Below are positions 6,926 through 51,235 of a stretch of 64,000 nucleotides of DNA, piece after piece (the stretch's first letter is position 1; each line of letters opens with the position of its first letter). The notes below the pieces were generated by a model, which was not told the origin of the DNA, made no database searches, and worked only from the letters and a program-made list of their open reading frames with translations. The position numbers were made by a program, and so were the translations under genes. This DNA comes from Bryobacteraceae bacterium (GTDB lineage: Bacteria > Acidobacteriota > Terriglobia > Bryobacterales > Bryobacteraceae): positions 9,660-73,659 of the forward strand of contig DATJNW010000105.1 in assembly GCA_035507655.1 (NCBI GenBank), read 5' to 3'.

Positions 6926-6948
6926 GCTGTCGTGACCCAGAGACTCCT

Positions 6949-8035: not shown

Positions 8036-8041
8036 CCGCCT

Positions 8042-28504: not shown

Positions 28505-28508
28505 AATC

Positions 28509-29585
28509 ATGGCGGATTCCAACAAAACTGAAAAACCGACCGGGCGGCGCCTGCAACGGGCCCGCTCAGAGGGTCAGTTTGTTGCCTCTCGCGACATGCT
28601 CACGGCCGGACATTTTCTGGTGTTCGTGATCATGTTGGGAGCGTTCTTTCCGGTCTGGTTCGACGGGATGAAAGCCATGCTGCGGGATTTTCTGGCGGCG
28701 GCGTTTCACGGCGAATTGGACATTGCGCGCGCTCCGGGAATCGCCCGCGCCCTGATCGATCGCGCCTTTTTGCCGCTTGCGGGCGTGGCGTTTGCGGCCG
28801 TGGTGACGTCGCTCGCCGTGCAGCTTTCGATCACCCGGATGGGATTCACTTTTAAAAAATTTCTACCGGATTTCGGCCGCTTCAACCCGGCCAACAAGAT
28901 CCGCCAGATCGCCACCCAGGCGCCGGTTGCCCTGCTCCAGACAACGGCCATGCTGGTGGTGTTCAGCACGACGATTTATTACGTCGCCAAGGAAAACGCG
29001 GGAATTTTTTTGTCGCTTCCGTTCGCCAGTCTCGAAGTCGGAATTTCGACCATCGCCGCGTCGCTCAAAGAACTGCTGTGGAAGGCCACGGCGGTGTTTA
29101 TTGTCTTTGGCGTGATTGACTTCGTCCGGCAGCGACGGCGCTACATGGAAGGGTTGAAAATGACCAAGCAGGAGGTCAAAGACGAGGTGAAGGATATGGA
29201 AGGCAACCCCCATGTGCGCGGCAAAATCCGCCGCCTGCGCCGCGACCTGGCGCGGCGCCGGATGATGAAAGCGGTGCCGGCCGCAACGGCCGTGATCGTG
29301 AACCCGACGCACTACGCCGTCGCCTTGAAATACGAGCACACCACCATGGCGACGCCGGTGGTGGTCGCCAAAGGCAGAGATTTCCTGGCGCTGCGGATTC
29401 GCCAGCTGGCGATTGAAAATCAGGTGCCACTGGTGGAAAATCCGCCGCTCGCGCAAGCGCTGTACAAATCGGTGGAGGTGGGGCGCGAAATTCCCGCGAA
29501 TCTGTATCGGGCCGTGGCGGAAGTTCTCGCCTACATTCATCGGCTCCGGAATTTGCGGCCAGGCAAAGGGCGCCGCGCGCGCTGA
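28509..29585 (+). CDS. flhB: flagellar export switch protein FlhB
   Basis: 358 aa. Contains NKTEKPTGRRLQRARSEGQ, the autocleavage motif VIVNPTHYAVAL and MTKQEVKDEVKDMEGNPHVRGKIR. Confidence 0.95.
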   Translation: MADSNKTEKPTGRRLQRARSEGQFVASRDMLTAGHFLVFVIMLGAFFPVWFDGMKAMLRDFLAAAFHGELDIARAPGIARALIDRAFLPLAGVAFAAVVTSLAVQLSITRMGFTFKKFLPDFGRFNPANKIRQIATQAPVALLQTTAMLVVFSTTIYYVAKENAGIFLSLPFASLEVGISTIAASLKELLWKATAVFIVFGVIDFVRQRRRYMEGLKMTKQEVKDEVKDMEGNPHVRGKIRRLRRDLARRRMMKAVPAATAVIVNPTHYAVALKYEHTTMATPVVVAKGRDFLALRIRQLAIENQVPLVENPPLAQALYKSVEVGREIPANLYRAVAEVLAYIHRLRNLRPGKGRRAR

Positions 29586-35993: not shown

Positions 35994-36041
35994 AATTCAC
36001 CCTCTTTGGCTTGCGGCGGACCGCTGTTCGAGGTTTCAAGA

Positions 36042-38933
36042 ATGCAGACCAAGTCACACTTCCCCCAGTTCAAGCAGAATACGGCGATGCTGGGGATTGC
36101 CGCCTCGGTTCTCATGGCGATCATCGCCGTCTGCTACGCGCAGTGGAGGCGTTACGACCGCGCCAATCGAGAAGCGGCCCTGACCAGCGACGCCGTGGAT
36201 TCAGTGAGCCGGCTTTTTTCCGACCTGCTGGATGCGGAAAGCGCCCAGCGCGGCTTCGTGCTCACCGGCGAGAACCGCTTTCTCCAACCGTACGATCAAG
36301 CCGTTCAGGAAATCCCCCGGGAGCTCCGGACCGTCAGGGGCCTGGTCGCGGTGCGGCAAGGCGAATCCGGAATCATCGCGCAACTGAATCAGTTGGTCGA
36401 ACAGAGGCTGGCCGAGTTTCGCCGCCGGATTGATGTGCGGCGTACTCAGGGCGCCGCGGTGGCGGCGGCCGTGGTGCTGACGAACGAAGCGCAGCAGACG
36501 ATGCAGCAGATTCGCAGCGTGTGCGACGAAATCCAGCGCCGGGAGCGTTCCGCGCAGCGGCAGGCTTCGCTCGATGGCGAGGCGGCCGCGCAAATCGCGC
36601 TGCTGATCACCGTGGCGGGATCGCTGATCCTACTGTTCTTTTTCGCCATCGGGTTCGAGCCGTTCCTGACCCGCGGCTCCGGGCCTCGGGACCGGCGCTG
36701 GTTTCTGCGCTACGGAGCGGCGGTTGTCACGGTTACAGCGGCGACCCTGCTGCGCATGGCCCTGGTTCCGCTGGTGGGAAGCGGCACCAATTCGATCCCC
36801 TTCGTCATTTTTTTCCCCGCGATTCTGTTCGCGGCTTGGTATGGCGGGTTTCGCGCCGGCACGTTGGCGCTTCTCCTTTCTACTTTCGCCTCGGATTATT
36901 TCTTTCTGGCGCCGGAGGGAAAGTTCGACATCCGCGGACCGGACGAGCTGATTTCCCTGCTGATCTTCGTCACCGTCGGTTTCGGAATTGCGTTTATGAG
37001 CGATTCGCAGAGGCGCGCCGTGGCGCGAGCCGAGATCGCCGAGGACGCGGAAAGACACGAACGCCAAAGATTCGAGACGACACTCGCAAGCATTGGCGAC
37101 GCCGTGATCGCCACCGACGCCGAAGGACGCGTTACCTTCGCGAATAAAGTGGCGTTGCACCTGGCCGCCTGGTCCGAGACGGAAATCGCCGGCCAGCATC
37201 TCGATGAAGTCTTTCGGATCGTCAACGAATACAGCCGCCAGAAAGTGGAAAGCCCCGTCGCCAGGGTTCTGCGCGAGGGCGCCATTGTCGGGCTGGCGAA
37301 TCATACGGTGCTGCTGGCGCGAGACGGAACGGAAGTCCCCATCGACGACAGCGCCGCTCCCATTCGCAATCGCAGCGGCGCGATTCAGGGCACGGTACTG
37401 GTGTTTCGCGACATCACCGAACGGCGGCGCGCGGAAGCCGCGCGCAACCTTCTTTCCTCGATGGTCGAGTCGTCGGGCGACGCGATCTTCAGCAACGATT
37501 TGAACGGAATCGTAACCAGCTGGAACCAGGCAGCCGAGCGAATCTTCGGGTACTCGGCCGGGGAGATGATCGGAAAGCCGATCTCGTTGCTGAACCCACC
37601 GGGGGAGCCGGACGACACCGCGCAAATCCTGGAGCAAATCCGGCGCGGCGAGCGGATCGAGCAGCATCAGACCCTCCGCCGCACCAGGGACCACAACGTG
37701 ATTCACGCGTCGGTGACGATCTCGCCGATTTACGACGCCTCCGGGGCGGTCACCGGAGCATCCAGGATCACGCGCGATATCACCGCGGAGGTGCAGGCCA
37801 AGGAAGACCTCGCCGAAGAACGCGAGCGGCTGCGTGTAACGCTGAACAGCATCGGTGACGCGGTCATCACCACGGACCATCATGGAAGGGTCACCTACCT
37901 GAATCCGGTCGCCGAGAACCTGACCGGCTGGCCCGGTAGGGATGCCGCCGGAAAACCGCTCGACGAGATTTTCCGCATCGTCGGGGAGGAGACACGCGAG
38001 GTGGTGGAGAACCCGGCGTTGCGGGTGTTGAAGGAGCGACGGATGGTCGGGCTGGCGAACCATACCGTGCTGATCGCGAGTAATGGGTGCGAGTCCGCTA
38101 TCGACGATAGCGCTGCGCCGATTCGCAATTCGCGCGGAGAAATCATCGGCGTCGTGCTCATCTTCCGGGATATTACGGAGCGGCGCGCCTCGGAAAAGCA
38201 GTTGCTGGCGCAAACTTCGGAATTGCGCCGCGCCAATGAAGAATTGAGCCAGTTCGCCTACGTCGTGTCGCACGATTTGCGCGAGCCGCTACGAACCGTG
38301 GTCAATTTTTCCGAACTGCTCGTCCGCGAACAGGCAATCGCGCCCGGCTCTGACGCGGCGACCTACGCGAAATTCATTCTGGACAGCGTTCATCGGATGG
38401 AAGTGCTGCTGAACGATCTGCTGGCTTATAGCCAGCTTGGCGGACCGCACGAGCAGCCCCATTGCCGGATCGACATGAACCGGATTGTGGAAGAGGTGCG
38501 GAGAAACCTGGAAGCGATGATCGCCGAAACGGGCGCGGAAGTGGTTGCCGACGAGCTGCCCGAGGTATTCGGATACGAAACCCAGCTCTTGGAAGTGCTC
38601 CAGAATCTGATCAGCAATGCGATCAAGTACCGCTCCGATCGCCCGCCGCGAATTCAGATTTCTGCCTGGCGAGAAGAGAGCGACTGGGTGTTCAGCGTCC
38701 GCGACAACGGAATCGGAATTGCGCCGGAGTATCGGCAGATGATCTTCGGGGTCTTCAAGCGTTTGCATGGACGCGAAGTCCCCGGCACCGGGATCGGCTT
38801 GGCGATTTGCAGCAAGGTGGTCGAGCGCCACGGAGGCAAGATCTGGGTCGAATCCGAGCCTGGAGAAGGCGCCGAGTTTTTCTTCACCATGCCGGTCAAT
38901 CTCGCGGGCCGCGCGGCAAGCTCTCAATCGTGA
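36042..38933 (+). CDS. hybrid-architecture sensor histidine kinase (CHASE3, DUF4118-like membrane domain, four PAS domains, HisKA, HATPase_c)
   Basis: CHASE3-like LLDAESAQRGFVLTGENRFLQPY. Repeated PAS blocks (SIGDAVIATDAEGRVTFAN / SIGDAVITTDHHGRVTYLN). H-box FAYVVSHDLREPLR. G-boxes DNGIGI and GTGIGLAI. Confidence 0.9.
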   Translation: MQTKSHFPQFKQNTAMLGIAASVLMAIIAVCYAQWRRYDRANREAALTSDAVDSVSRLFSDLLDAESAQRGFVLTGENRFLQPYDQAVQEIPRELRTVRGLVAVRQGESGIIAQLNQLVEQRLAEFRRRIDVRRTQGAAVAAAVVLTNEAQQTMQQIRSVCDEIQRRERSAQRQASLDGEAAAQIALLITVAGSLILLFFFAIGFEPFLTRGSGPRDRRWFLRYGAAVVTVTAATLLRMALVPLVGSGTNSIPFVIFFPAILFAAWYGGFRAGTLALLLSTFASDYFFLAPEGKFDIRGPDELISLLIFVTVGFGIAFMSDSQRRAVARAEIAEDAERHERQRFETTLASIGDAVIATDAEGRVTFANKVALHLAAWSETEIAGQHLDEVFRIVNEYSRQKVESPVARVLREGAIVGLANHTVLLARDGTEVPIDDSAAPIRNRSGAIQGTVLVFRDITERRRAEAARNLLSSMVESSGDAIFSNDLNGIVTSWNQAAERIFGYSAGEMIGKPISLLNPPGEPDDTAQILEQIRRGERIEQHQTLRRTRDHNVIHASVTISPIYDASGAVTGASRITRDITAEVQAKEDLAEERERLRVTLNSIGDAVITTDHHGRVTYLNPVAENLTGWPGRDAAGKPLDEIFRIVGEETREVVENPALRVLKERRMVGLANHTVLIASNGCESAIDDSAAPIRNSRGEIIGVVLIFRDITERRASEKQLLAQTSELRRANEELSQFAYVVSHDLREPLRTVVNFSELLVREQAIAPGSDAATYAKFILDSVHRMEVLLNDLLAYSQLGGPHEQPHCRIDMNRIVEEVRRNLEAMIAETGAEVVADELPEVFGYETQLLEVLQNLISNAIKYRSDRPPRIQISAWREESDWVFSVRDNGIGIAPEYRQMIFGVFKRLHGREVPGTGIGLAICSKVVERHGGKIWVESEPGEGAEFFFTMPVNLAGRAASSQS

Positions 38934-39195: not shown

Positions 39196-41484
39196 ATGGT
39201 GGCTATCATGAGCCGCAACAAGTGGGTGCAGTTAGCGGCAGGCGTAACAATCGCGGCCGGCGCCGGCTTCCTCACGTGGCGGGAATGGACCGGCACCCGT
39301 GTGTCGAAACTACCAGAATCGGGTTACGTAAACCCGGCCGCGTGCGCCGGTTGTCACTCTGAAGTTTTCAAATCCTACCGTCTTACCGGAATGGGTCAGT
39401 CTCTTTACCGTCCCACACCAGAAAATATGGTTGAGGACTTCAAGATTCATAACACCCTCTATAACCGGACGTCGGATCGCTACTACACCATGATCGAACG
39501 CGATGGCAGGTTTTACGAGCGCCGCCATCAAATCGGCTACGACGGTAATAAGGTTAACGTTATCGAGAAACGGATTGACTATGTCATGGGTTCGGGCAAC
39601 CACGTACGGAGTTATCTGAGTCGCACCGCGCAGGGTACTCTGGTGGAGCTTCCAGTGAGCTGGTATGCAGAGAACGGCGGTTACTGGGCGATGAGTCCAG
39701 GCTATGATCGCGCCGACCAGGACGACTTCCGCCGAACCATCGTCAGCGAGTGCATGTTTTGCCACACGGCCTATCCAGTTCCTGATCAGGGCGCCAATTT
39801 AACCACCGATGAGCCTCTTTTCGGTGACCACATTCCGGAAGGGATTGATTGCCAGCGCTGCCATGGTCCCGGCCGCGCTCACGTCGAAGCAGCCTCCTCC
39901 GGTCACGCCACCATCGAATCCATTCGTGCCGCCATCGTCAATCCGGCCAGGCTTAGCCGGGACCGCCAACTGGAGGTGTGCATGCAGTGCCATCTTGAAA
40001 CCACCCATTTCCCGCTGCCAGGCCAACTCCTTCGCTACTCTCGGCAACCTTTCTCCTACCGCCCGGGCGAACCGTTGGAAGACTACGAATTGTTCTTCGA
40101 CCACGCGTCCGGCACGGGGCATGACGATAAGTTCGAGATTGTGAGTGCCGCGTACCGGTTACGCAGGTCGGCGTGCTTTCAATCCAGCCAGATGACATGC
40201 ACCACGTGTCACAATCCACACTCAGTTCTACGTCCGGAACAGGCCGCGGCGCATTACTCCGCGGTGTGCCGCAACTGCCATCCGTCGGTCCACCAATCCA
40301 CGATGCCCGAATCCGCGAGCTCCTGCGTCGATTGTCACATGGCCAAGCGGCGGCCCGAAGATGTCGTGCATACCGTCATTACCGATCATTATATTCAGCG
40401 GCACAAACCCGCTCGCGACCCTTTGAAACCCATACAGGAAGCGGATTTTGCGTCTGCGGCCAACTACCAGGGCGAAGTGGTTCCCTATTATCCCCCCGGT
40501 CTCCCGCGAACTCATGAAGACGAGCTGTACATTGACGTGGCCCAGGTTTACTATGGCAGTAACTTGAAATTCGGGATTCTCCGCCTCAAACAGGACCTTA
40601 TTAAGTACAAGCCGGATCACCCGGAGTTCTATGTCGCTCTCGGAGACGCGGAACTTAAGGTGAAGAATTACGGCGACGCCATTGACTGGTTCGACGAGGC
40701 TCTTCGTCGACGCCCCGATTTTGTTCCGGCATTGGAGGAATTAGGCGGCGCCTTTATCGCCGCAGGAAAGCGGGACGAGGCGATCGAGGTGCTCGAAAAG
40801 GCTGCCTTATCCCCGTCGGCGCGTACCGCGGTCTTCACCAATCTCGGCGGTGTCTACCTCGCTACTGGAAATCTGGAGAAAGCCACGCAGGTTTTGCGGA
40901 AGGTCTTGCACATGAATCCCGATCTGCCTGAGGCCCACAATTTTCTCGGACTCGTCATGCTTGAGCAGCACGACCTGTCCGCCGCCGAGAAAGAATTTCG
41001 CGAAGCCATTTCGATACAACCCGACCTTGCCGAGGCGCAGTACAATCTCGGCAACGTCCTCGCTGCCGCGTCCGACAGCTCCGAAGCCGCGTACCATTTC
41101 GAAAAGGCGATAGCCGCGAGAGCTGACTACGCCGTCGCCCACCATCATCTCGGAGTTTTGCTGGCCCAAATGGGATCTAATCGAAAAGCTCTGACCGAGT
41201 TGGAGGATGCCGTACGATTAGATCCCAATTCTGCCGAAGCTTACAGCGATCTGGCAAGCGTTCTAGTGGCTGACGGCCGTCCGCAAGGTGCGGCCGATGC
41301 GTATCGGAAGGCCATTGGGCTAAACGATCAATTTTATGAAGCTCACCTCGGCCTTGCGCAGATTCTGGCGCAACAAGGGAGTTTTTCGGAAGCGCGAACC
41401 CAATTTGAAGAAGCGAGCCAAAGTCCGGACCCGCTGATCAGGAGCGCTGCACAAAAAGGCTTAATGCTGACTCGGGCGCGGTAA
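39196..41484 (+). CDS. heptaheme c-type cytochrome fused to TPR repeats (membrane-anchored or exported)
   Basis: 762 aa. Seven CXXCH motifs (CAGCH, CMFCH, CQRCH, CMQCH, CTTCH, CRNCH, CVDCH), an N-terminal hydrophobic segment, and a C-terminal half made of TPR repeats. Paralog of 45884-48157. Confidence 0.85.
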   Translation: MVAIMSRNKWVQLAAGVTIAAGAGFLTWREWTGTRVSKLPESGYVNPAACAGCHSEVFKSYRLTGMGQSLYRPTPENMVEDFKIHNTLYNRTSDRYYTMIERDGRFYERRHQIGYDGNKVNVIEKRIDYVMGSGNHVRSYLSRTAQGTLVELPVSWYAENGGYWAMSPGYDRADQDDFRRTIVSECMFCHTAYPVPDQGANLTTDEPLFGDHIPEGIDCQRCHGPGRAHVEAASSGHATIESIRAAIVNPARLSRDRQLEVCMQCHLETTHFPLPGQLLRYSRQPFSYRPGEPLEDYELFFDHASGTGHDDKFEIVSAAYRLRRSACFQSSQMTCTTCHNPHSVLRPEQAAAHYSAVCRNCHPSVHQSTMPESASSCVDCHMAKRRPEDVVHTVITDHYIQRHKPARDPLKPIQEADFASAANYQGEVVPYYPPGLPRTHEDELYIDVAQVYYGSNLKFGILRLKQDLIKYKPDHPEFYVALGDAELKVKNYGDAIDWFDEALRRRPDFVPALEELGGAFIAAGKRDEAIEVLEKAALSPSARTAVFTNLGGVYLATGNLEKATQVLRKVLHMNPDLPEAHNFLGLVMLEQHDLSAAEKEFREAISIQPDLAEAQYNLGNVLAAASDSSEAAYHFEKAIAARADYAVAHHHLGVLLAQMGSNRKALTELEDAVRLDPNSAEAYSDLASVLVADGRPQGAADAYRKAIGLNDQFYEAHLGLAQILAQQGSFSEARTQFEEASQSPDPLIRSAAQKGLMLTRAR

Positions 41485-41534
41485 GGTGCCAGCAACCCAG
41501 GTGCCTCTATGCAACCGCAAGCTCCGAGGGGATT

Positions 41535-42581
41535 TTACTTTTTCGGAGCATAAGGACCGACTTCGGGTTTTCCCTGCGTGTCCTTCAACGGGCCGAGCTC
41601 AACCGAAACGCCGCGGCCAACCGCCACAGGTTCGCTTCCGCTCTGGAAGCAGGTGAAATCGGGCCGGTCCCGCCAGGCGAACGGACCACAAAGCCGCTTA
41701 CCCGCGCCGATCGCTGCATCATGCACAATGTTGATCAACCGCTCATAGTCCGGAGTGCCGCGCGCGTAGCCGGAGAAGTTTCCGAGATCCGTGCTGGCCG
41801 CGAAAACGGCTGTGACTCCGGGGATCGCGGCGATTTCGCGGGCGTCCTTCGCGCCGTCCAGCGTTTCGATCATCTCGATCAGGACCACGTTCTTATTCCA
41901 GGTCTCGCGATATCCGCCGGGAACGCTGCCCCAGAATTCGGCGCTAAAAGCGGGCCCACCCCCGCGGCTGCGCCCGCCGAGCGGCGGAAACATGGTCCAG
42001 TTACGCGCCTCTGTTCCCTCCGCCAGCGAACGAACCGTGGGAACCACCACCACCAGCGCGCCCAGGTCCGCCGCGTGCTGGATTTCGCGCTCATTGGTGT
42101 AGGCCACCCGAACGCCGGGTACGGCTTGGGCGTGCGGGCAAGCCGCCCACATGCGCCCCACCGCTTCCCAGTCGCGCGAGTCGTGTTGCATTTCGGTCCA
42201 GATGAAATCGTAACCGGCATTGGCCATCGCGCAATACGTCTCCGGACTATCGGAGCTGAATACCGTCCCGCCGGTGACTTTTTCCCCTTTCATCATTTTG
42301 ATCATCACCGGGTTCCAGATCTTGGCGCCGTTCGGCGCATCCCAGGCGTGTCCGTATTTCCATCGCGAAGGATCGAGCGTACCTCGATTCACGGCCTTAG
42401 CCGGCGCCTTCGAGATTGCACCGGAGTCCTTGCCGGCCGGCGCCGCCAGCGGAAATTTAAGAGTTCCCGCATCGGGATTATAAGCGTAGGGGTCCGCAAC
42501 CGCAGGCCTTTGACCTTGCGCCTCACAACACAAAGACCCGAGCACCACGTACAGTACGACCACCACAGATCGACAATTCAT
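41535..42581 (-). CDS. exported HpcH/HpaI-family (class II pyruvate) aldolase homologue
   Basis: 348 aa. Signal peptide MNCRSVVVVLYVVLGSLCCEAQG. Contains YDFIWTEMQH, VPGVRVAY, VVLIEMIET and AASTDLGNFSG, which correspond to the family's TIM-barrel metal and substrate motifs. Confidence 0.75.
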   Translation of the reverse strand: MNCRSVVVVLYVVLGSLCCEAQGQRPAVADPYAYNPDAGTLKFPLAAPAGKDSGAISKAPAKAVNRGTLDPSRWKYGHAWDAPNGAKIWNPVMIKMMKGEKVTGGTVFSSDSPETYCAMANAGYDFIWTEMQHDSRDWEAVGRMWAACPHAQAVPGVRVAYTNEREIQHAADLGALVVVVPTVRSLAEGTEARNWTMFPPLGGRSRGGGPAFSAEFWGSVPGGYRETWNKNVVLIEMIETLDGAKDAREIAAIPGVTAVFAASTDLGNFSGYARGTPDYERLINIVHDAAIGAGKRLCGPFAWRDRPDFTCFQSGSEPVAVGRGVSVELGPLKDTQGKPEVGPYAPKK

Positions 42582-42607
42582 TTCGACTCCTCGCTGGCCA
42601 GGTCTCG

Positions 42608-43690
42608 CTAAACCTGATGGAGCTTGACTACGGTGCGGTTGATATCTTTGAGCGTGGGCTTACCGGTCTGCGCCAAGTCCCGCGCCAGTTCCGTTTGCAG
42701 CATTTCTAAAACCTGTTGCGCGCCGTCCGGGCCGTAGGCTCCCAGTCCCCACGCGACCGGCCTTCCGATCATGACCGCCGTCGCGCCATACGCCAGCGCT
42801 TTGAAGATGTCGGAACCGCGCCGGAAATTTCCATCGATCAGAAGCGGCGCCTGGCCGGCCACGGCATCGGCAATCGAAGGCAGCATTTCGATCGACGAGG
42901 CCGTTCCAGGCGTCAGCAGTCCGCCGTAATTGGAAACCACGATGCCTTGCACGCCGCGTTTCACCGCCGCCCGGGCTTCTTCAGGCGTCATAATTCCTTT
43001 GATCAGGACCGGAACCTTGATCCCTTCTCGCAACCGGTCAATCACCTCCCAGTTGATCGCCGGACGCGCGATTTCGGCGAGCTTCGCCGGACCGGATTTC
43101 GCCTCGGCGCCGCGGAACGGCACGCCGGTGGTGAGGCAGATCGCTTTAACCCCGGCGTTCGCCGCTTGATCGATCTTCGCGCGCACCGCTGACAAATCGC
43201 CGTCAAGAAAAACCTGGTACCAGAGATTTTTCGACTCCGCCGCGATTTTCTCCAGCGGCATGCTCGATTCGCTGCTGACGACCATCCACGCCTTGGCCGC
43301 CGATGCGCCGCGTGCGACGCCAACTTCGCCCTCGGAATGATATCTCTGGAGCCGCGCCAGCGGCGCCACCATGATCGGCGCGAACATCGTTTCCCCGAAC
43401 AACGAAAGACTCAGATCCAGGTGTGTCGTGGGCACCATCATGTGCGGCCGGAACGTGATCCGGTTGAAAAACGAACGATCGCTGCCGGCAATCGTGGCAA
43501 AGACCGGCGGCGCGAGCGTCCGCCGGGCCATTTCCTCAAATTCGAGAACGTTGACCAAATCCGTGCGCGGCGCGATGCGGCCCGGCGCTTCCATCGACGA
43601 CGGCGGCTGATCCGCCATCAGCGGGGACGCGGCGGCCAGCGACCCGAAACCGGCCAGCGCTTTGCGTCGCGTGAAAGAAATCCTTCTCAT
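42608..43690 (-). CDS. Tat-signal FMN-dependent alpha-hydroxy-acid dehydrogenase homologue lacking the catalytic His/Arg
   Basis: The internal ATG at 43690 makes an ATGA overlap with the upstream gene. MRRISFTRRKALAGFGSLAAASPLMA is a twin-arginine signal. FMN-phosphate motif LLIDGNFRRGSD..IGRPVAWGL is present. The active-site motif reads SNYGGLL instead of SNHGGRQ. Confidence 0.8.
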   Translation of the reverse strand: MRRISFTRRKALAGFGSLAAASPLMADQPPSSMEAPGRIAPRTDLVNVLEFEEMARRTLAPPVFATIAGSDRSFFNRITFRPHMMVPTTHLDLSLSLFGETMFAPIMVAPLARLQRYHSEGEVGVARGASAAKAWMVVSSESSMPLEKIAAESKNLWYQVFLDGDLSAVRAKIDQAANAGVKAICLTTGVPFRGAEAKSGPAKLAEIARPAINWEVIDRLREGIKVPVLIKGIMTPEEARAAVKRGVQGIVVSNYGGLLTPGTASSIEMLPSIADAVAGQAPLLIDGNFRRGSDIFKALAYGATAVMIGRPVAWGLGAYGPDGAQQVLEMLQTELARDLAQTGKPTLKDINRTVVKLHQV

Positions 43691-44889
43691 ACAAAATTCG
43701 TCCTCACTAAACTTCGGTCGATGGAAGCGAGACTTGGCCTTCCCATCTGCGCCATGGCCATTACTAACTCCGCCTGAAGAATCTCGATCACCCGCTGCAC
43801 TCCCGCGGGTCCGTACGCGGCCAGCCCCCAGCGAACCGTCCGGCCCAGGCACACCGCCTTGGCGCCGAGCGCCAGAGCTTTCAAAATATCCGATCCGCTG
43901 CGGATCCCGCTGTCAAAAATAACCGGCACGCGCGCGGGAACCGCGTCGACGATCTCACTAAAAACCTCCAGCGTCGATGGATCATAGTCCAGCGAACGGC
44001 CGCCATGATTGGAAACATAGATCGAATCGCAGCCGTGATCCACAAACGCTTTGGCGTCTTCTCCGGTCAGTACGCCCTTGACCGAGATCGGAACTTTCAG
44101 CATCTTGCGCACCTCATCGACGTACTGCCAGTTGTACCAGAGGCGCGACGTCGAGATGCGATAAGGATTGCTCGAAGCGGCTGCGCCGCCGCGTCCGCCC
44201 CGTCCACCGCGCCCTCCGCGTCCAGCTCCGCCGAGCGGCCTCGCGTTGAGATGACGGTCACGCATCGACCGTTCGTAATAGCTCGACTGCTGATCGACGG
44301 TCATGACGATCGCCTTCGCCCCGGCCGCCAGAGCCCGATCGAGCAGCGCCTTGGTCTGATCCATGTCCTGCTGCGGATAAAGCTGCCACCAGATGGGGCT
44401 GGTCGCCGCCGCGGCAATCTGATCCACCGGAAAGGAAGCGTTGGCGCTGATGATCATCGGAGTATCGGAAGCCGCCGTCGCTCCGCGGTGGGTGGCCAGC
44501 TCGCCATCGGGATGCAATGCGCCGTGGCCCGCGCTGGGCGATACCATCATCGGGAATTTCATCGCCGTGCCCAGGACATCGGTCGAGGTCTGAATCGAAC
44601 TCACGTCCGCGATTTCGCGGGGAACCAGTTCGACCCAATCGAAAGCCTCGCGATTGCGCCGCAAAGTGAACTCACCTTCCGATCCGTAGGCTGTGTAAGT
44701 GTAGGTCTCACGCGGTAGCTTGGCGTAGGCGACCGCCTCGAAGTCGATCACCTTTTTAAGTTCGTCCATCCCCGGCACGCGCGAATTGTCACGATAGGGG
44801 TCCTGCTGAGATTTCAGAAGGGTCGCTCCCGCGAGGCCTGCTCCCAACCCTCCCAGCACCGCCCGCCGCGTCTCGCCTGTTTTTTTCAT
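43687..44889 (-). CDS. Tat-signal FMN-dependent alpha-hydroxy-acid dehydrogenase/oxidase (glycolate oxidase / L-lactate dehydrogenase / flavocytochrome b2 family)
   Basis: The ATG at 44889 gives MKKTGETRRAVLGGLGAGLAGATLL (twin-arginine signal). Contains AYGSEGEFTLRRNREAF, VKGV, VSNHGGRSLD, and DSGIRSGSDILKALALGAKAVCLGR. Confidence 0.85.
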   Translation of the reverse strand: MKKTGETRRAVLGGLGAGLAGATLLKSQQDPYRDNSRVPGMDELKKVIDFEAVAYAKLPRETYTYTAYGSEGEFTLRRNREAFDWVELVPREIADVSSIQTSTDVLGTAMKFPMMVSPSAGHGALHPDGELATHRGATAASDTPMIISANASFPVDQIAAAATSPIWWQLYPQQDMDQTKALLDRALAAGAKAIVMTVDQQSSYYERSMRDRHLNARPLGGAGRGGRGGRGGRGGAAASSNPYRISTSRLWYNWQYVDEVRKMLKVPISVKGVLTGEDAKAFVDHGCDSIYVSNHGGRSLDYDPSTLEVFSEIVDAVPARVPVIFDSGIRSGSDILKALALGAKAVCLGRTVRWGLAAYGPAGVQRVIEILQAELVMAMAQMGRPSLASIDRSLVRTNFV

Positions 44890-44900
44890 GTTTCTTTCCT

Positions 44901-45464
44901 CTATTGCGGATCGTGACAGTAGTCGCAACCCTGACTCGCATTATGTTGCCGATGACAGCTCACGCATCCCGCCATGGACAGATCCGTTTCCCGGAACAGG
45001 CGATCGCGCTCGGCGACATGCCCGTGACAATCCTCGCATTTGGCGCCGGCCTCGAGATGAGACTTATGGCTAAAAAATACAAAATCCGGCTCTTTGTAGA
45101 CCCGAACCCATGGGATTTCCTGTTTATTGCGGTCGAACTCCGCCAGCTTCTGAATCGCCGGACTGTCTTTCTTGATGGTTCGATGACAGGCCATGCACTT
45201 GGAGGTCGCCGGGAAGCTCATGGCATCGCCCGGATCGGGATTCGTGTGGCAATCCTTACAAACAAGACCGAGCGCCAGATGTTGCTTGTGACTATAAGGA
45301 ATCGGCTGCTCGGGTCCCTTGGGTTGGTCCGCAAAGCTCGAAATCGAGAAGACCACGAATGCCGCTGCAATCAGGCCTCGCTTCAATCTCTGCACGAAAA
45401 TCAAACCGGCGCATCGGCGGCCCGCAATGTTCAACTCTGAATATTTTGGCGCGATACTACACAT
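44901..45464 (-). CDS. pentaheme c-type cytochrome (cytochrome c3/c7-like), N-terminal anchor or signal
   Basis: Five CXXCH motifs (CKDCH, CMACH, CEDCH, CVSCH, CDYCH), two of them preceded by SHKxH. Hydrophobic segment LIAAAFVVFSISSFA. The start is ambiguous: ATG at 45464 or in-frame GTG at 45395. Confidence 0.8.
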   Translation of the reverse strand: MCSIAPKYSELNIAGRRCAGLIFVQRLKRGLIAAAFVVFSISSFADQPKGPEQPIPYSHKQHLALGLVCKDCHTNPDPGDAMSFPATSKCMACHRTIKKDSPAIQKLAEFDRNKQEIPWVRVYKEPDFVFFSHKSHLEAGAKCEDCHGHVAERDRLFRETDLSMAGCVSCHRQHNASQGCDYCHDPQ

Positions 45465-45883
45465 CTGCAACCCCGCATTGAGCGGCGGGCTCCGCCGCTC
45501 TGACGGCGTGCCTCCCACAAAAGAAAATCAACATCGCTGCCAAGGCTATTCACCCCGAATATAACCGAAGGTGAACTACGGCCTCCAGCATATCATGCCG
45601 TGGTCCGGTAGATTGTTGCATTTTGTGCGCCCCAAAAAAAGTATCCATTCCGCTCAAAACGGCGGAAATGTCAAGCAGTTCTGGGTTCGCTGTCTTCGGT
45701 TTTGTGGCCGTTCGGGAGACTACTGCTTTTTAAGTCGCAGATGATTACTCCAGCGGAAACACCTCGTAAATGGTTGCGATTTCCGAGGCGCCTGGTGTAG
45801 GCTCAAACGGTGACGAGCAGTCACGCTTAAAATGTCCGGCTGACGCCTGTGCCGGGGCGTCGGCGCGCCGCCTCTCATTTGCG

Positions 45884-48157
45884 ATGTGGAAGTCCTGGTT
45901 ACTGATCGTATCGGATCAAGAGTTGAACCGCAACGCCGCTCTGCTGGTGAGCGCAATGCTGCTGAGCGCGATTGTCTTATCCGCGCCCGCGCCGCCGCAG
46001 GTCGATTCCGGCTACGTCGATTCCACGGCCTGCGCGGCCTGCCATGCCGAAATTTTTAACTCCTACCGCCTCACGGGAATGGGAAGGTCTCTGTACCGGC
46101 CTTCTCCTCAGAACATGGGAGAGGACTTCGCGACGCACAACACGCTTTACAATCACGCCTCGGATCGCTACTACACCCTGATCGAACGCGGCGGAAAATG
46201 GTACCAGCGCCGCCATCAGATCGGATTTGACGGCCGGGAAACGAACGTCGTAGAAAAACGAATCGATTATGTCATTGGTTCCGGTAACCATGTCCGCACT
46301 TACCTGACTCGGACGGCGCAAGGCACGCTCGTCGAGTTGCCGGTGAGTTGGTACGCCGAGAACGGAGGATTTTGGGCAATGAGCCCGGGATATGATCGCC
46401 CCGGCCAAGAGGATTTCCGGCGCACCATCATCGCCCGCTGTCTCGCCTGCCACACTGGTTATCCAGCGCCAGGACAAACCTCAAACCTGGCGACCAATGA
46501 GCCGCGCTTCGGCGACAACATCCCCGAAGGGATCGATTGCCAGCGCTGCCATGGACCGGGCCGCGCGCACATCGCAGCAGCGGCATCCGGCCACGCCACG
46601 CCCGCCGCGATTCGCGCCGCAATCGTCAACCCCTCCCGGCTAAGCCGCGAACGCCAACTCGATGTCTGTATGCAATGTCATCTCGAAACCACGCATTTTT
46701 CCCTGCCAGGCGAGATTCTTCGTGATCCGCAGCAGCCTTTTTCTTACCGGCCTGGGGAACCACTCGGCGACTCCATTCTGTTTTTCGATCACGCGCCGGG
46801 CGCCGGTCACGACGACAAATTCGAGATCGCGCACGCCGCCTACCGTCTGCGCAAGTCGGCGTGCTTTCGCGCCAGCCAGATGACCTGCACGACTTGTCAC
46901 AATCCGCATACGGTTGTGTCTCCCGAACAGGCCGCAACGCATTACACCGCGGTGTGCCGTAGCTGTCACTCATCGGCCCACGAATCAAAAATGCCTGCCG
47001 GAGCGGCCTCCTGCATCGCCTGTCACATGCCGCGGCGCCGGGCGGAGGATGTGGTGCACGCGGTCATGACGGACCACTATATTCAACGACGCCCGCCCGC
47101 GCGGGACCTGTTGAAACCGCTTGAGGAATCGGCAATCGAAAAGCAAAGCAATTATCAGGGCGAAGTGGTTCCGTATTATCCGGCGCCCTTTCCCCAGACG
47201 CCCGCCGCCCGGCTTTATACTGATGTCGCGCAGGTCCTCGACGGCGCGAATCTGGGCTCAGGCGTGGCGCGGCTGGAACGGGACCTGGAGCAGTTCAAAC
47301 CCACCCGGCCAGAGTTTTACGTCGCGCTTGGCGACGCTTACGTGAAAACGAATCATTACGCGCAGGCGATTCACTGGTTCAATCAGGCGCTCGGCTTCGA
47401 ACCTGGCTTTCGGCCGGCGCTTGAGGAACTGGGTGGCGCGCTGATCGCCGCCGGACGGCTGGAACAAGCCGCCGAAGTACTCGAAAAAGCGACCGCCCCG
47501 CCTTTGCCGAATACGTCGGCTCTGACCGATCTCGGGGGAGTGTATTTTCTGCAAGGCAATCTGGAGCGAGCAACCGCAGTGCTGCAACAAGCATTGGCGA
47601 TCAATCCGGATTTGCCGAAAGCTCGCCGTTCGCTGGCATTGGTATTCATCCGCAAGGGCGATTGGACCGGTGCGGAACAGCAACTGCGCGCTGCAATCTC
47701 GGCGCAGCCGGATTTCGCCGAGGCTCACGATTCGCTCGGGAATGTGCTCGCGCGGAGTTCGCAATATGCGGAAGCGCGATACCATTTCCAGAAGGCGATC
47801 GCAATCAAATCCGATTACGCGGCCGCGCACCACGATTATGGACTGCTTCTCTTGCGAATGGGTTCGCCGAGCGAAGCTGTGAACGAGCTACAGACGGCCG
47901 TCCGCCTGGATCTAAAATCCGCCCGCAGTTTTATGGATTTAGGAATCGCCCTGGCCGCCAGCGGACGCCTCGCCGATGCGGTTGACGCGTACGGAAACGC
48001 CATTCGCCTTGATGCTGATTTCTACCAGGCTCATTTTGCCCTCGGGCAGGTCCTGTTGCGTCAGGGCGATTTAGTGGGCGCGCGGGCGCACTTTGAAAAG
48101 GCAGCCCAAAGCCCCGATCCGAGGATGCGCGAGGCTGCCCGGAACTTGCTTCGCTAA
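45884..48157 (+). CDS. heptaheme c-type cytochrome fused to TPR repeats, paralog 2
   Basis: Seven CXXCH motifs (CAACH, CLACH, CQRCH, CMQCH, CTTCH, CRSCH, CIACH). Long identical runs with 39196-41484, e.g. VELPVSWYAENGG, IPEGIDCQRCHGPGRAH and DDKFEI. I chose the ATG at 45884. Confidence 0.85.
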   Translation: MWKSWLLIVSDQELNRNAALLVSAMLLSAIVLSAPAPPQVDSGYVDSTACAACHAEIFNSYRLTGMGRSLYRPSPQNMGEDFATHNTLYNHASDRYYTLIERGGKWYQRRHQIGFDGRETNVVEKRIDYVIGSGNHVRTYLTRTAQGTLVELPVSWYAENGGFWAMSPGYDRPGQEDFRRTIIARCLACHTGYPAPGQTSNLATNEPRFGDNIPEGIDCQRCHGPGRAHIAAAASGHATPAAIRAAIVNPSRLSRERQLDVCMQCHLETTHFSLPGEILRDPQQPFSYRPGEPLGDSILFFDHAPGAGHDDKFEIAHAAYRLRKSACFRASQMTCTTCHNPHTVVSPEQAATHYTAVCRSCHSSAHESKMPAGAASCIACHMPRRRAEDVVHAVMTDHYIQRRPPARDLLKPLEESAIEKQSNYQGEVVPYYPAPFPQTPAARLYTDVAQVLDGANLGSGVARLERDLEQFKPTRPEFYVALGDAYVKTNHYAQAIHWFNQALGFEPGFRPALEELGGALIAAGRLEQAAEVLEKATAPPLPNTSALTDLGGVYFLQGNLERATAVLQQALAINPDLPKARRSLALVFIRKGDWTGAEQQLRAAISAQPDFAEAHDSLGNVLARSSQYAEARYHFQKAIAIKSDYAAAHHDYGLLLLRMGSPSEAVNELQTAVRLDLKSARSFMDLGIALAASGRLADAVDAYGNAIRLDADFYQAHFALGQVLLRQGDLVGARAHFEKAAQSPDPRMREAARNLLR

Positions 48158-48240: not shown

Positions 48241-49278
48241 ATGGAGCTGATGATGAAACCCAGGTTGATCGTTTCCTTTGCGGCCGTTCTAATGGCAACC
48301 TTCTGGATTTATTCTTCTCGAACGGCTTCGGCGCAACAGTCCGAGGCGGTATCGAATCACAACGCGACCCGGCAAGACTTCGATCATTTGATGAAAGAGC
48401 TCTCCAATTGGGGCCGATGGGGCAAACAGGATCAAATGGGCGCGGTGAATCTCATCACGCCGGCGAAACGGAAACAAGCCCTCGCCGAGGTGAAGGAAGG
48501 TTTTTCCGTCTCGATGGCGCGCACCGCGGAGATGGAGCCGGCCATCGACAATCCCCGGCCGATTGTCCACGAAATGCAAAAAGGACGGGGGGGCGCCAAG
48601 AAAGCGCCGAGCGACATCGGCGCCGCTTCCGACACGTTTTTCATTGCCTATCACGGATTCGTGCACACGCACATGGATGCGTTCTGCCACCGAACGTACA
48701 AGGGCCAGATGTACAACGGATTCCCGAGCAGCGAGATCACCGACAAGGGCTGCGATGCTGGTTCGATCTTTGCTTTCAAGAATGGAATCATTACGCGCGG
48801 CGTTCTCATGGACATTCCGCGTTTAAAGGGAGTGGATTATCTCGAGCCCGGCACGCGCATTTATCCCGAGGATCTGGATGCCTGGGCGAAAGAAGCTCAC
48901 CTCAAGATCTTGCCGGGTGATGCAGTGCTCATTCGCACGGGGCGGTGGGCGCGTCGCGATGCCAAGGGACCCTGGAACGCGTCGCAACTCGCGGGGCTGT
49001 ACATGACCTGCGCCAAGTGGCTGCACCAGCATGACGCGGCGATTCTCGGCAGTGACGCGGCGGAGGACGTTCACCCGTCGGGTATCGAAGGGATCGCCGA
49101 ACCGATTCACGCGTTGGTGCTCATTGCCATGGGCATGCCGATTTTCGACAATTTGGATCTGGAAGCGGTCAGCAAGGAAGCGGCCCAGCGGAAACGTTGG
49201 GATTTCCTGGTTACCGCCTCTCCGGCGGCGGTTCCCGGCGCCACCGGATCCGTTTTGAATCCCATCGCTACCTTCTGA
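48241..49278 (+). CDS. exported cyclase-family (kynurenine-formamidase-like) metallohydrolase
   Basis: 345 aa with a signal peptide. YHGFVHTHMDAFCH resembles the HxGTHxDxPxH cyclase motif. Also contains GVLMDIPRLKG and PGDAVLIRTG. The start may be 48250 or 48253. Confidence 0.7.
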   Translation: MELMMKPRLIVSFAAVLMATFWIYSSRTASAQQSEAVSNHNATRQDFDHLMKELSNWGRWGKQDQMGAVNLITPAKRKQALAEVKEGFSVSMARTAEMEPAIDNPRPIVHEMQKGRGGAKKAPSDIGAASDTFFIAYHGFVHTHMDAFCHRTYKGQMYNGFPSSEITDKGCDAGSIFAFKNGIITRGVLMDIPRLKGVDYLEPGTRIYPEDLDAWAKEAHLKILPGDAVLIRTGRWARRDAKGPWNASQLAGLYMTCAKWLHQHDAAILGSDAAEDVHPSGIEGIAEPIHALVLIAMGMPIFDNLDLEAVSKEAAQRKRWDFLVTASPAAVPGATGSVLNPIATF

Positions 49279-49621
49279 CCTGCGCCATTACCTGATTTGG
49301 CCGATTTCTCTTGAGACGGGATTCGACGTTGTTGCGAGAAAGTTTGAGAATGGCGCGTACCCCTCCTGAAGGAACACTGCCCCGTGGAAGCGTTTCCCCG
49401 CATTCAGAGCCCGAATGGCGCGCGAAATGCTTCGCCAAGACTGCTCTATTTCTCGAATGGCGCCGCGGACTCTGAAAAAAATTCACCGTCGCGCTTTCGA
49501 TCCGCCAAATTTTCCCAGTGTAAGTGTCAGAGGTTTGCCGACGCATCATTCACGAATCCTGTGAATTGTTGAATTGGACGGCCACTTGCTCCGTTCCCAG
49601 ATGCAGGAGGGCAGACAATCC

Positions 49622-51235
49622 GTGAAACATTTCGCCATAATGCCGGGGTTCCTCGTCTTCGCGAGTCTAGCTGTGGCCCAGATTCCGAATCCTACGCAGA
49701 CGCAGCCCCCGCCTCCACCGGAGAACGCGAGCCAGCCTGCGCCAATCTTCCAGGTGACGGTGGTCTCTCGAACCACGAAGGCGATCAACTATCATCACCG
49801 CACCGGCACCACCCACATCGGGTTTCGCGGCACGGCGCTGATGCCGCCGGCGCGCGGAGAAGCGAGCGTCGAAAGCCAGCTCGGATCGACGAAAATCCAG
49901 ACGCATCTGGATCACATGACCCCCGCAAATCAGTTCGGGCCGGAGTACATGACTTACGTCCTTTGGGCCATTACACCGGAGGGTCGCGCCAACAATCTCG
50001 GCGAAGTGGTGCTCCAGGGCGATCACGCCAATCTGCTCTCGACCACGGACCTGCAAAGCTTCGGACTGATCGTGACGGCCGAGCCGTATTTCGCGGTGAC
50101 ACAGCCGAGCGATGTAGTGGTCGCGGAAAATTTTGTTCGTAGCGACACCACCGGCACCATCGAACAGGTGGACGCGAAATATGAACTCCTTGAGCGCGGC
50201 ACGTACGTGATGAATCATGGCGAATATCGCCCGGTGGAGGTGAATCCGAAGGGTCCGCTGCAATTGGCGGAGGCCGAGAATGCCGTACAGATTGCGCGCC
50301 TGGCGGGAGCGGATCGCTACGCCGCCGACACTTTCCAGAAAGCGATGATCGATCTAGAGAATGCCGAAGGCTTCCTGAATCATCATCACGATCGCAAGCA
50401 ATCAGAGACCAATGCGCGTGAGGCGGCGCAGATGGCCGAGGACGCTCGCGTGATCACGATTCGCAAGATTCGCGACCAGCAATTAGCGAATGAACGCGCG
50501 GCCGACGCTGCCAGGGCGCAGGCTGCAGCCGAGCAGGCTCAGCTCGATCAGCGGCGCCGGGCACAAGCCGAAGCCGATCGTCTTGCCGCGGAAGAGGCCG
50601 AGCGCCAGGCGGACCAGGCGGCTGCGCGAGCCGTTCGCGAACGAGCGGCAGCGGACGCGGCTCGCCTCGCGGCGATCGAACAGCAGAAGATCCTCGAGAC
50701 GCAGGCCGAACAGGCTCGCTTGAGCGCGCAGGAAGCGGAGCGCGCGCGGCAGGCGGCTGAACAGCAGCGCCAACAGGCGGAGTCGGAAAAAATCCAGCTT
50801 CGCGAACGTCTGCGGCAGCAGTTGAGCGCGATTCTGCAAACTCAGGAAACCGCGCGCGGCCTCATCGTGAACATCTCGGATGTGCTGTTCGATTTCAATC
50901 AGTACACCTTGAAACCGGGCGCTCGGGAGAAACTGGCGAAGGTTTCGGGAATCCTGCTTGCTTATCCGGGCCTGCAAATTCGCCTTGAAGGCTATACCGA
51001 CAACATTGGCAGCGACGAATACAATCTGAAGCTTTCCGAGGAGCGCGCCAGCGCGGTTCGCGATTATCTGGTCGCCCAGGGAGTTCCCAGTTCGACCGTG
51101 AGCGCCGTCGGACTGGGCAAAGCGGATCCCGTGGCGTCGAACGATAACCAGGCCGGCCGGCAACAGAATCGGCGAGTGGACATGGTGGTCACCGGCGCGC
51201 CGATCGGCATCGGCGATTTGAGCGGGGACCGTTAA
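49622..51235 (+). CDS. OmpA-family protein with a DUF4398-like segment and a long Ala/Glu/Gln/Arg coiled coil
   Basis: GTG at 49622 after an AGGAGGG RBS gives the signal peptide MKHFAIMPGFLVFASLAVAQ. C-terminal region LEGYTDNIGSDEYNLKLSEERASAVRDYL..NRRVDMVV. Confidence 0.85.
   Translation: MKHFAIMPGFLVFASLAVAQIPNPTQTQPPPPPENASQPAPIFQVTVVSRTTKAINYHHRTGTTHIGFRGTALMPPARGEASVESQLGSTKIQTHLDHMTPANQFGPEYMTYVLWAITPEGRANNLGEVVLQGDHANLLSTTDLQSFGLIVTAEPYFAVTQPSDVVVAENFVRSDTTGTIEQVDAKYELLERGTYVMNHGEYRPVEVNPKGPLQLAEAENAVQIARLAGADRYAADTFQKAMIDLENAEGFLNHHHDRKQSETNAREAAQMAEDARVITIRKIRDQQLANERAADAARAQAAAEQAQLDQRRRAQAEADRLAAEEAERQADQAAARAVRERAAADAARLAAIEQQKILETQAEQARLSAQEAERARQAAEQQRQQAESEKIQLRERLRQQLSAILQTQETARGLIVNISDVLFDFNQYTLKPGAREKLAKVSGILLAYPGLQIRLEGYTDNIGSDEYNLKLSEERASAVRDYLVAQGVPSSTVSAVGLGKADPVASNDNQAGRQQNRRVDMVVTGAPIGIGDLSGDR

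Follow-up and report, generated by a model that had tools for sequence, protein, structure and literature searches.

The window analysed here, a 64,000-nucleotide stretch of a Bryobacteraceae genome (contig DATJNW010000105.1) with a G+C content of ~60%, carries a minus-strand operon of four genes that encode, in order of transcription, a pentaheme cytochrome c, two proteins of the FMN_dh family (B and C), and an aldolase-like protein (D). On balance, B and C probably constitute a two-subunit, flavin mononucleotide (FMN)-dependent enzyme that is exported by the twin-arginine translocation (Tat) system and that donates electrons, in this lineage, to the cytochrome, which resembles the ActA subunit of Alternative Complex III (ACIII). 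In this enzyme, B would be the catalytic subunit and C a disabled, constrained paralogue. The features on which the argument draws are the following.

44901..45464, minus strand: ActA-like pentaheme cytochrome c (open reading frame, five CXXCH motifs, Pfam matches), with a signal peptide or membrane anchor
43687..44889, minus strand: B, predicted catalytic subunit of an FMN-dependent (S)-2-hydroxy-acid dehydrogenase, with a Tat signal (PF01070, 355 bits)
44800..44889, minus strand: twin-arginine signal region of B, MKKTGETRRAVLGGLGAGLAGATLLKSQQD, with T-R-R-x-[VL]-L-x-G-L-G kept in homologues
43996..44013, minus strand: SNHGGR catalytic motif of B (His295, Arg298), from the alignment and homologues
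44185..44238, minus strand: Gly/Arg-rich low-complexity insert of B, GGAGRGGRGGRGGRGG, in the loop-4 'lid' region
43687..43690, minus strand: ATGA stop/start overlap of B and C (translational coupling)
42608..43690, minus strand: C, degenerate FMN_dh paralogue carrying a Tat signal of its own (PF01070, 285 bits)
42917..42934, minus strand: SNYGGL of C where B has the catalytic SNHGGR (Tyr for His, Leu for Arg)
41535..42581, minus strand: D, HpcH/HpaI-type protein (class II pyruvate-aldolase-like) with a general secretory (Sec) signal peptide and an N-terminal extension of ~70 amino acids

An earlier note on this DNA, made from the letters alone, had described four minus-strand genes with junctions of 11 nucleotides, a 4-nucleotide ATGA overlap, and 26 nucleotides, and all of these are confirmed. 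The cytochrome stop codon (TAG, 44903-44901) is followed by 11 nucleotides that include AGGAAAG and then by the ATG of B at 44889; the overlap at 43690-43687 joins B and C; and the stop codon of C (TAG, 42610-42608) is separated from the ATG of D at 42581 by 26 nucleotides that include GAGGAG. Soil-metagenome contigs hold exact copies of C in unchanged gene order, and homologues carry Bryobacteraceae or Bryobacterales names in their sources.

The proposed mechanism has B and C crossing the membrane through Tat in a folded state, with their cofactor. B would then oxidise a 2-hydroxy acid, and C would pair with it in a hetero-oligomer, either in a structural role or as a flavin electron relay. 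In the lineage of the window, the pair would be co-transcribed behind the ActA-like cytochrome, which would take up the electrons at the periplasmic face of the membrane and hand them to the respiratory chain. D, the last gene of the operon in a few close relatives, may act on the 2-oxo-acid product.

The predicted catalytic subunit B and its paralogue C

B matches the Pfam family FMN_dh over residues 55-396 (355 bits against a cut-off of 24.9) and is 31-37% alignable to glycolate, lactate, and mandelate oxidases and to flavocytochrome b2. The HMMER alignment places in B the equivalents of lactate oxidase Tyr40, Tyr146, Asp174, Lys241, His265, and Arg268 (numbering of the Aerococcus enzyme, checked on the printed alignment). 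The SNHGGR motif that the earlier note had pointed out lies at 44013-43996 and is present in 120 of 120 B homologues; all homologue counts for B, C, and D are out of 120 sequences each. B is predicted to be a competent (S)-2-hydroxy-acid dehydrogenase of the glycolate-oxidase/flavocytochrome-b2 family. Its substrate is not assignable, because B lies under every NCBIfam equivalog cut-off: 222 vs 471 bits for MftD, 208 vs 376 for PRK11197, 204 vs 646 for L_lactate_ox, and 184 vs 550 for LldD. The insert GGAGRGGRGGRGGRGG varies widely in length and composition among homologues, reaching 16 G/R residues out of 16. The profile searches proposed in the earlier note, carried out with Pfam, recover FMN_dh in both B and C, HpcH_HpaI in D, and multiheme families in the cytochrome.

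C scores 285 bits against FMN_dh and is 34% identical to B. At the lactate oxidase positions that make up the substrate site and catalytic motif, it differs as follows.

Tyr40: Thr in C (variable in the family)
Tyr146: Phe in C
Asp174: Gly in C (LTTG for LTVD)
His265: Tyr in C
Arg268: Leu in C

A further ~10 residues are deleted in C after IAGS. SNYGG[L/I] occupies the motif position in 94 of the 120 close homologues, and SNYGG in ~100. In an alignment of 26 C sequences spanning 61-78% identity, the invariant residues include Gln159, Thr187, Lys231, Ser253, Asp286-Gly287, Arg290/291, Gly292, and Arg310-Pro311, which we take to match the FMN-contact residues of the glycolate oxidase and flavocytochrome b2 structures. 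C appears to have retained the flavin site and lost the substrate site; the protein presumably still binds FMN and is, in all likelihood, inactive for the canonical reaction. The description of both flavoproteins as FMN 2-hydroxy-acid dehydrogenases is therefore not upheld, since C lacks the catalytic His and Arg as well as other substrate-site residues, and B alone appears competent.

Loss of the catalytic residues is not accompanied by decay. The ratio of nonsynonymous to synonymous substitution rates (dN/dS) of C against six relatives is 0.11-0.18, an approximate value with saturated synonymous sites, compared with 0.05-0.16 for B, so C is constrained and not decaying. That C is a pseudogene is excluded by its intact open reading frame, the dN/dS of ~0.1-0.2, and its universal retention. 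More distant partner subunits carry SNHGGR, SNHGGL, SNHGGG, SNFGGL, SDYGGI, SNYGGP, or STxERx at this position, and the catalytic motif of C-type subunits looks to have been lost progressively, lineage by lineage.

Both flavoproteins are preceded by Tat-type signals. The N-terminus of B reads MKKTGETRRAVLGG, with the twin-arginine stretch TRRAVLGGLGAGLAGATLL, and that of C reads MRRISFTRRKALAG (MRRISFTRRKALAGFGSLAAASPL), with the stretch TRRKALAGFGSLAAASPL. The arginine pair is found in the N-terminus of 117 of 120 B homologues, the three exceptions being truncated gene calls, and of 116 of 120 C homologues, with R8 and R9 invariant in the 26-sequence alignment. Both B and C thus show an S/T-R-R-x-F-L-K-like motif with a mildly hydrophobic h-region, kept among orthologues, by which Tat signals were judged, and the twin-arginine N-termini reported for them in the earlier note are borne out. 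The same conservation across B and C homologues means that the motifs are no start-codon artefact; start codons mis-called ahead of the true ones, which the earlier note had named as the circumstance under which its signal peptides would vanish, are ruled out. Export of both proteins is very likely.

The supposition that export of this FMN family has no precedent, on the other hand, does not hold. PauLDH from Photorhabdus australis is a Tat-signal member of the FMN_dh family that has been expressed and assayed, with a SignalP Tat score of 0.972; it favours S-2-hydroxyvalerate and is called a dehydrogenase by its authors (PMC9670274). In addition, an exhaustive search with a regular-expression test finds Tat-like N-termini in ~28 of the best 150 representatives of 50%-identity clusters, including a separate RRxFLxFLAASPL clade.

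The relationship between B and C was followed at the species level by searching the C-family alignment against one genome per species, which yields 80 loci. These are recognisably acidobacterial by title (Bryobacterales, Vicinamibacterales, and Terriglobia), with a few bins titled otherwise. In essentially every one, the C-type gene has a B-type gene beside it. Among 74 B-to-C junctions in other genomes, 30 have the -4 overlap seen in the window, and the order is C-B in a few lineages. Five Bryobacterales proteins of 684-696 amino acids (P0207, P0208, P0227, P0235, and P0236) are natural B-C fusions that retain only the first signal: a single N-terminal arginine pair precedes a B-like domain with SNHGGR, a linker stands in place of the signal peptide of C, and the C-like second domain has a further degraded motif (VSTYERS, LSTYGSP). 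P0361 is also grouped with these fusions.

Universal adjacency, translational coupling, and gene fusion together argue that B and C act as one enzyme, and the comparative evidence that they would do so is strong. The FMN_dh family forms tetramers, so C most likely pairs with B in a hetero-oligomer. A heteromer is accordingly expected with good confidence, and a tetramer would perhaps take the form alpha2-beta2.

Clustering of all neighbouring open reading frames across the ~80 loci reveals no third gene that is universally conserved beside B-C; the neighbours are lineage-specific. Vicinamibacterales often have B-C-B' triplets, at ~8.5-12.5 kb in their loci, in which two SNHGGR genes surround one SNFGGL or SNYGGL gene (L053, L055, L057, L058, L061, L062, L065-L069, L071, and L079), and an amino-acid-permease gene often lies downstream of them. 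In three genomes, a transketolase-like protein of ~839 amino acids (PF00456, PF22613) is encoded directly upstream of B-C (L016 6585-9104, L018 6126-8645, and L036 ~5839-8360); in L016 and L018, its gene stands between the cytochrome and B.

The same comparisons bear on a different role for C, namely that of a neofunctionalised flavoenzyme in which Tyr replaces the catalytic His and the substrate is not a carboxylate, so that B and C would catalyse two consecutive steps. Such a role is very improbable. Strong conservation of the Tyr within the Bryobacterales clade, purifying selection on C, and the retained FMN-contact residues would all be expected of a redirected enzyme; the wider family, however, has H, Y, F, L, or W at that position, followed by R, L, I, G, P, or S, the fusions degrade the motif further to STYERS or STYGSP, and all carboxylate-binding residues are gone together. 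Because the motif position varies and degrades in the fusions, active-site selection in C appears relaxed, not redirected.

The pentaheme cytochrome and the probable fate of the electrons

Five CXXCH motifs (CKDCH, CMACH, CEDCH, CVSCH, and CDYCH) lie within the 187 amino acids of the cytochrome, far above chance, and the protein exceeds the Pfam cut-offs for Cytochrome_C7, c3_2, and CIII. Its N-terminus is hydrophobic from either of two possible starts, so that both features ascribed to it earlier are confirmed. The true start is probably the GTG at 45395 (MQRLKRGLIAAAFVVFSISSFA/DQP), not the ATG at 45464, because homologues show only a short n-region ahead of the hydrophobic segment, which in them is followed by SFA/(D,A,Q)Q.

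The nearest solved relatives by sequence, in the PDB, are ActA subunits of ACIII: 8k9e_A (1.4e-29), 6f0k_A (2.1e-27), 6btm_A (1.4e-22), and 6lod_A (3.3e-21). The best NCBIfam match is QrcA, the cytochrome subunit of menaquinone reductase (NF041781), with 82 bits, under the cut-off of 180. The hydrophobic segment aligns with the membrane helix of ActA and ends in SFA/DQP, a possible signal-peptidase site. The cytochrome is predicted to be a relative of ActA that stands alone. Neither in the window nor among the 80 loci (L097-L176) recovered by searching metagenomes with the cytochrome alignment does it adjoin actB-F genes; in those loci it is accompanied by flavoproteins, MoCoBD enzymes, and outer-membrane barrels. 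Functionally, the protein is not ActA, because an ACIII context is missing.

The neighbourhoods of cytochrome homologues follow a regular pattern. Among metagenome homologues with at least 71% identity, B comes next in 11 of 12, followed by C where the contig permits. Homologues with 46-67% identity directly follow other flavoproteins on the same strand: (i) amine-oxidase-like proteins (PF01593) with TRRGFVKGAA-type signals in 21 loci, (ii) a flavin adenine dinucleotide (FAD) protein of ~630 amino acids with ARRDFLNGAA-type signals in 12-15 loci, and (iii) GMC oxidoreductases in 10-13 loci, where the arginine pair is present in only 2 of 10 called open reading frames. Four further homologues lie upstream of a MoCoBD enzyme. 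Judged by these neighbourhoods, the cytochrome family would be a modular companion of periplasmic dehydrogenases. Transfer of electrons from flavoprotein to c-heme is the best reading because the family systematically adjoins exported flavoproteins, and the cytochrome is rather likely to be the acceptor for B-C.

Individual loci in which the cytochrome stands beside an exported redox enzyme include L114 4349-6417, L125 3897-6435, L145 752-3042, and L152 6001-9139, and the neighbourhoods look like a general modular scheme of 'dehydrogenase plus pentaheme cytochrome' in Acidobacteriota. In the closest cytochrome-B-C loci, a Rieske [2Fe-2S] domain protein of 243 amino acids is encoded immediately upstream of the cytochrome gene, on its strand (L097 5086-5841, L098 5250-5981, and L099 56-664); it is absent from the window.

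Viewed from the side of the flavoproteins, the association is narrower. In the species-level scan, ~10 of 80 loci have a cytochrome homologue no more than 10 kb from B-C, and the cytochrome is hence no universal partner of B-C. In L013, L019, and L022, its gene immediately adjoins the pair on the same strand; in L081 it is convergent, and in L016 and L018 it lies on the opposite strand at a distance of ~3 kb. L009 has the order GMC-cytochrome-B-C. The order in L022 is C-B-cytochrome, so the linkage survives rearrangement. Taken as a whole, the interpretation in the earlier note is partly supported, and the flavoprotein-to-heme transfer belongs to its supported side: the cytochrome-B-C order recurs and the cytochrome family sits beside exported flavoproteins.

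Several points weigh against the main reading of the operon. In ~70 of the 80 species loci, no gene for a c-type cytochrome lies close to B-C, so a general cytochrome pool or O2 may be the acceptor there and the link to this cytochrome may belong to one clade only; open reading frames with CXXCH near such pairs are scattered, unrelated mono- or diheme genes. In B, the Arg that would correspond to Arg164 of glycolate oxidase and Arg181 of lactate oxidase comes one residue late (TVDQQSSYYER), where HMMER aligns a Tyr, and its assignment is ambiguous. The argument for FMN binding by C consists of residue conservation. Some distant paralogues in the C position retain SNHGGR (L030, L039, L070, and P0120), so catalytic loss in C is clade-specific. 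Finally, the AlphaFold2 model of the fusion P0207, built on an alignment that is shallow over domain 1, has a predicted local distance difference test (pLDDT) score of 72.8 and a predicted template modelling (pTM) score of 0.51; both barrels are folded, with no confident packing between the domains. Foldseek searches with this model return single-domain matches only (TM ~0.42 over the query and 0.8-0.89 over the target), and with a pTM of 0.51 the model is uninformative on packing.

The sparse distribution of the cytochrome is also an argument for B-C as a periplasmic oxidase. Such an enzyme would reduce O2, and H2O2 and a 2-oxo acid would be set free outside the cytoplasm, perhaps for oxidative attack on organic matter or for antagonism, with the cytochrome unrelated or serving other enzymes. 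The closest solved relatives of B are lactate, glycolate, and mandelate oxidases, and the sources annotate homologues as '4-hydroxymandelate oxidase' or 'alpha-hydroxy acid oxidase'; oxidases and dehydrogenases of the FMN_dh family are inseparable by sequence alone. An oxidase nonetheless seems unlikely given the 11-nucleotide cytochrome/B junction with its ribosome-binding site in this lineage, the position of B after 11 of 12 close cytochrome homologues, and the attachment of the whole cytochrome family to exported flavoproteins. The sole assayed member with a Tat signal, PauLDH, is moreover named a dehydrogenase by those who described it (PMC9670274).

A bolder version of the cytochrome-coupled reading would make the FMN of C a pure electron-transfer cofactor that replaces the b5-type heme domain of flavocytochrome b2, with the operon forming part of a phylum-wide pentaheme system of Acidobacteriota. 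C would then split the two-electron hydride step of B into one-electron steps that feed the five-heme wire, and stand-alone ActA-type cytochromes would collect electrons from FMN_dh pairs and from amine-oxidase-like, FAD, GMC, and Mo enzymes. This extension is speculative and, taken as a whole, improbable. If true, it would give abundant soil bacteria a periplasmic, import-free route to respire small organic compounds.

The aldolase-like protein D and the surroundings of the operon

D matches HpcH_HpaI (PF03328) in Pfam with 46.3 bits against a cut-off of 25 and lies far below the cut-offs of the equivalogs HpaI (66 of 369 bits), GarL (60 of 407), and RhmA (46 of 441). It aligns equivalents of HpaI His45, Arg70, Glu149, and Asp175, and all 120 homologues retain the His, Arg, and Asp. 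An N-terminal hydrophobic segment is present in 114 of the 120, in agreement with the signal peptide previously read in front of the HpcH/HpaI core. The extension that follows this segment is conserved (ADPYANNPDAG..KFPLAAPAGKDSGAIT), and cytoplasmic HpaI has no such extension.

The family of D is large (3660 matches, some clusters having hundreds of members), and its link to B-C is rare. D is near the pair in 2-3 of the 80 species loci and beside it only in close relatives of the window, in the same orientation in L106 and on a 6.5-kb contig and on the opposite strand in L016 and L018. Three D homologues with 75-82% identity have neighbourhoods from which the FMN pair is absent: one holds an M28 peptidase and an MFS transporter; another a GDSL lipase, a short-chain dehydrogenase, and a Pel9A-like (pectate-lyase-like) protein; and a third an FAD oxidoreductase and a mandelate-racemase-type enzyme. 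A second exported HpcH/HpaI-like family, missed by tblastn with D, is encoded a few kb from B-C in L009 (13009-14019) and L044 (5728-6768); the copy in L044 has a TRRDLSFL Tat-type motif.

By its distribution, D appears to be a lineage-specific addition to the operon, outside the conserved system, and a role for it as a pathway partner of B-C is doubtful at best. The four-gene composition does not stand as a conserved system either, with the cytochrome within 10 kb in ~10 and D near the pair in 2-3 of the 80 loci. The recurrence of the four-gene synteny that the earlier note had asked about does exist, in that the cytochrome-B-C-D order is found again in L106 and on the 6.5-kb contig, but it is rare among the species loci.

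These observations bear directly on the pathway that the earlier note had drawn, in which two independent periplasmic dehydrogenases with different substrates and an aldolase convert a 2,4-dihydroxy acid to a 4-hydroxy-2-oxo acid and then to pyruvate and an aldehyde. The chemistry fits: FMN_dh enzymes produce 2-oxo acids, and HpaI-type enzymes cleave 4-hydroxy-2-oxo acids. D also begins 26 nucleotides after C behind a ribosome-binding site, retains the catalytic Arg and His and the metal ligands of HpaI, follows cytochrome-B-C again in L106 and on the 6.5-kb contig (with P0122, P0031, and P0243), and has exported HpcH-like counterparts in L009 and L044, a few kb away from B-C. C, however, is without the catalytic His, Arg, and carboxylate-binding residues that a second dehydrogenase would use, D accompanies the pair in few species loci, and its huge family includes close homologues in unrelated contexts. 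Two independent dehydrogenases feeding an aldolase are thus quite unlikely. The 2,4-dihydroxy-acid route as such is chemically reasonable and has little comparative support, D homologues being mostly in unrelated contexts; for this organism, it ranks between quite unlikely and doubtful.

Upstream, the operon faces one further feature.

45465..45769, no strand assigned: divergent intergenic region between the operon and a gene for a 795-amino-acid multiheme-TPR protein, the presumed location of the promoter(s)

Promoter(s) are presumably located in this region. A consensus scan of 41300-45900 finds no promoter-like sites and no sigma-70-like match, and its terminator-like sites are no more numerous than in shuffled sequence. 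An Rfam scan of 41000-46000 at E values up to 0.1 gives no matches.

Two paralogous genes flank the operon, at 39196-41484 (plus strand) and 45770-48157 (plus strand). Their products are 64% identical over 716 amino acids, and in each, seven CXXCH motifs precede a long TPR region; the gene at 45770-48157 diverges from the operon across the shared upstream intergenic region. Farther out, all on the plus strand, the window encodes a CHASE3-PAS histidine kinase (36006-38933), whose counterpart in L001 has a response regulator beside it, a PF04199 'putative cyclase' protein bearing a signal peptide (48241-49278), and an OmpA-domain protein with a long Ala/Gln/Glu-rich coiled region (49574-51235). 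A large flagellar gene cluster at ~3189-30358, recognised by eye from N-terminal sequences and unrelated to the operon, includes flagellin-like (4671-5516), FlhA-like (14145-16202), hook or rod protein (24927-26162), and FliR/FlhB-like (27731-29585) open reading frames.

Relation to known flavoprotein-heme systems

Among the closest known systems is flavocytochrome b2, with which B shares the FMN_dh fold and catalytic residues (1fcb and 1kbi, ~1e-47) and which, as proposed for B-C, passes electrons from a 2-hydroxy-acid-oxidising FMN to a heme protein outside the cytoplasm or matrix. Flavocytochrome b2, however, has a fused cytochrome-b5-type heme domain and is a homotetramer of the mitochondrial intermembrane space, whereas the operon has a separate c-type pentaheme protein, a catalytic and a degenerate subunit, and bacterial Tat signals. 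No cytochrome b5-type domain is found in B or C, for which Pfam gives only FMN_dh-type and related triosephosphate isomerase (TIM)-barrel matches, and B-C is thus not a member of the flavocytochrome b2 family.

PauLDH, set beside B by its description, is alike in being an FMN-dependent hydroxy-acid dehydrogenase with a Tat-type signal; it was assayed as a single recombinant protein, with no partner subunit, cytochrome, or periplasmic role described (PMC9670274). ActA shares five c-hemes and sequence homology across the heme domain with the cytochrome (PDB 6f0k, 6btm, 6lod, and 8k9e). It is a membrane-anchored pentaheme wire with heme potentials of ~-45 to +230 mV (PMC5928083). The electron donor of ActA is the ActB iron-sulfur wire within a quinol-oxidising complex, while the donor presumed here is a flavoenzyme.

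Among D-like enzymes, HpaI, GarL, and RhmA share the HpcH_HpaI fold, the aligned catalytic Arg/His, and the Glu/Asp metal ligands with D. All three are cytoplasmic, whereas D has a signal peptide and a conserved N-terminal extension of ~70 amino acids.

Flavoprotein-cytochrome c systems include the sulfide dehydrogenase FccAB, the p-cresol methylhydroxylase PchCF, and the FAD-dependent glucose, fructose, and gluconate dehydrogenases with a triheme subunit. As proposed for the operon, these flavocytochromes c combine an exported flavoprotein, often a Tat substrate, with a co-encoded c-type cytochrome subunit that accepts its electrons. They differ in being FAD enzymes with GMC, VAO, or glutathione-reductase-like folds and mono-, di-, or triheme class I cytochromes, where the operon has an FMN TIM barrel with a pseudo-subunit and an ActA-type pentaheme protein. 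The system is a variation on the flavocytochrome c theme and introduces no new principle. A literature search for periplasmic or Tat-exported FMN_dh proteins with a cytochrome partner or in heteromeric form returned only the passing PauLDH observation, and no paper was found on obligate pairing with a degenerate paralogue, on B-C fusions, or on coupling to a stand-alone ActA-type cytochrome; the earlier statement that no characterised system has this composition agrees with that result.

Bryobacterales and Vicinamibacterales rank with the most abundant bacteria of soils, and little is known of their energy metabolism. The B-C pair appears to represent an uncharacterised, widespread class in which a Tat-exported FMN 2-hydroxy-acid dehydrogenase always comes with a disabled, constrained paralogue, and it would be a clear example of a pseudo-subunit within a textbook family of flavoenzymes. 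If confirmed, the system may offer oxygen-insensitive, cytochrome-coupled hydroxy-acid dehydrogenases for biosensors, the application that motivated the work on PauLDH (PMC9670274). For the organisms themselves, confirmation would show how small organic acids and other compounds are oxidised in the periplasm, with the electrons wired into respiration.

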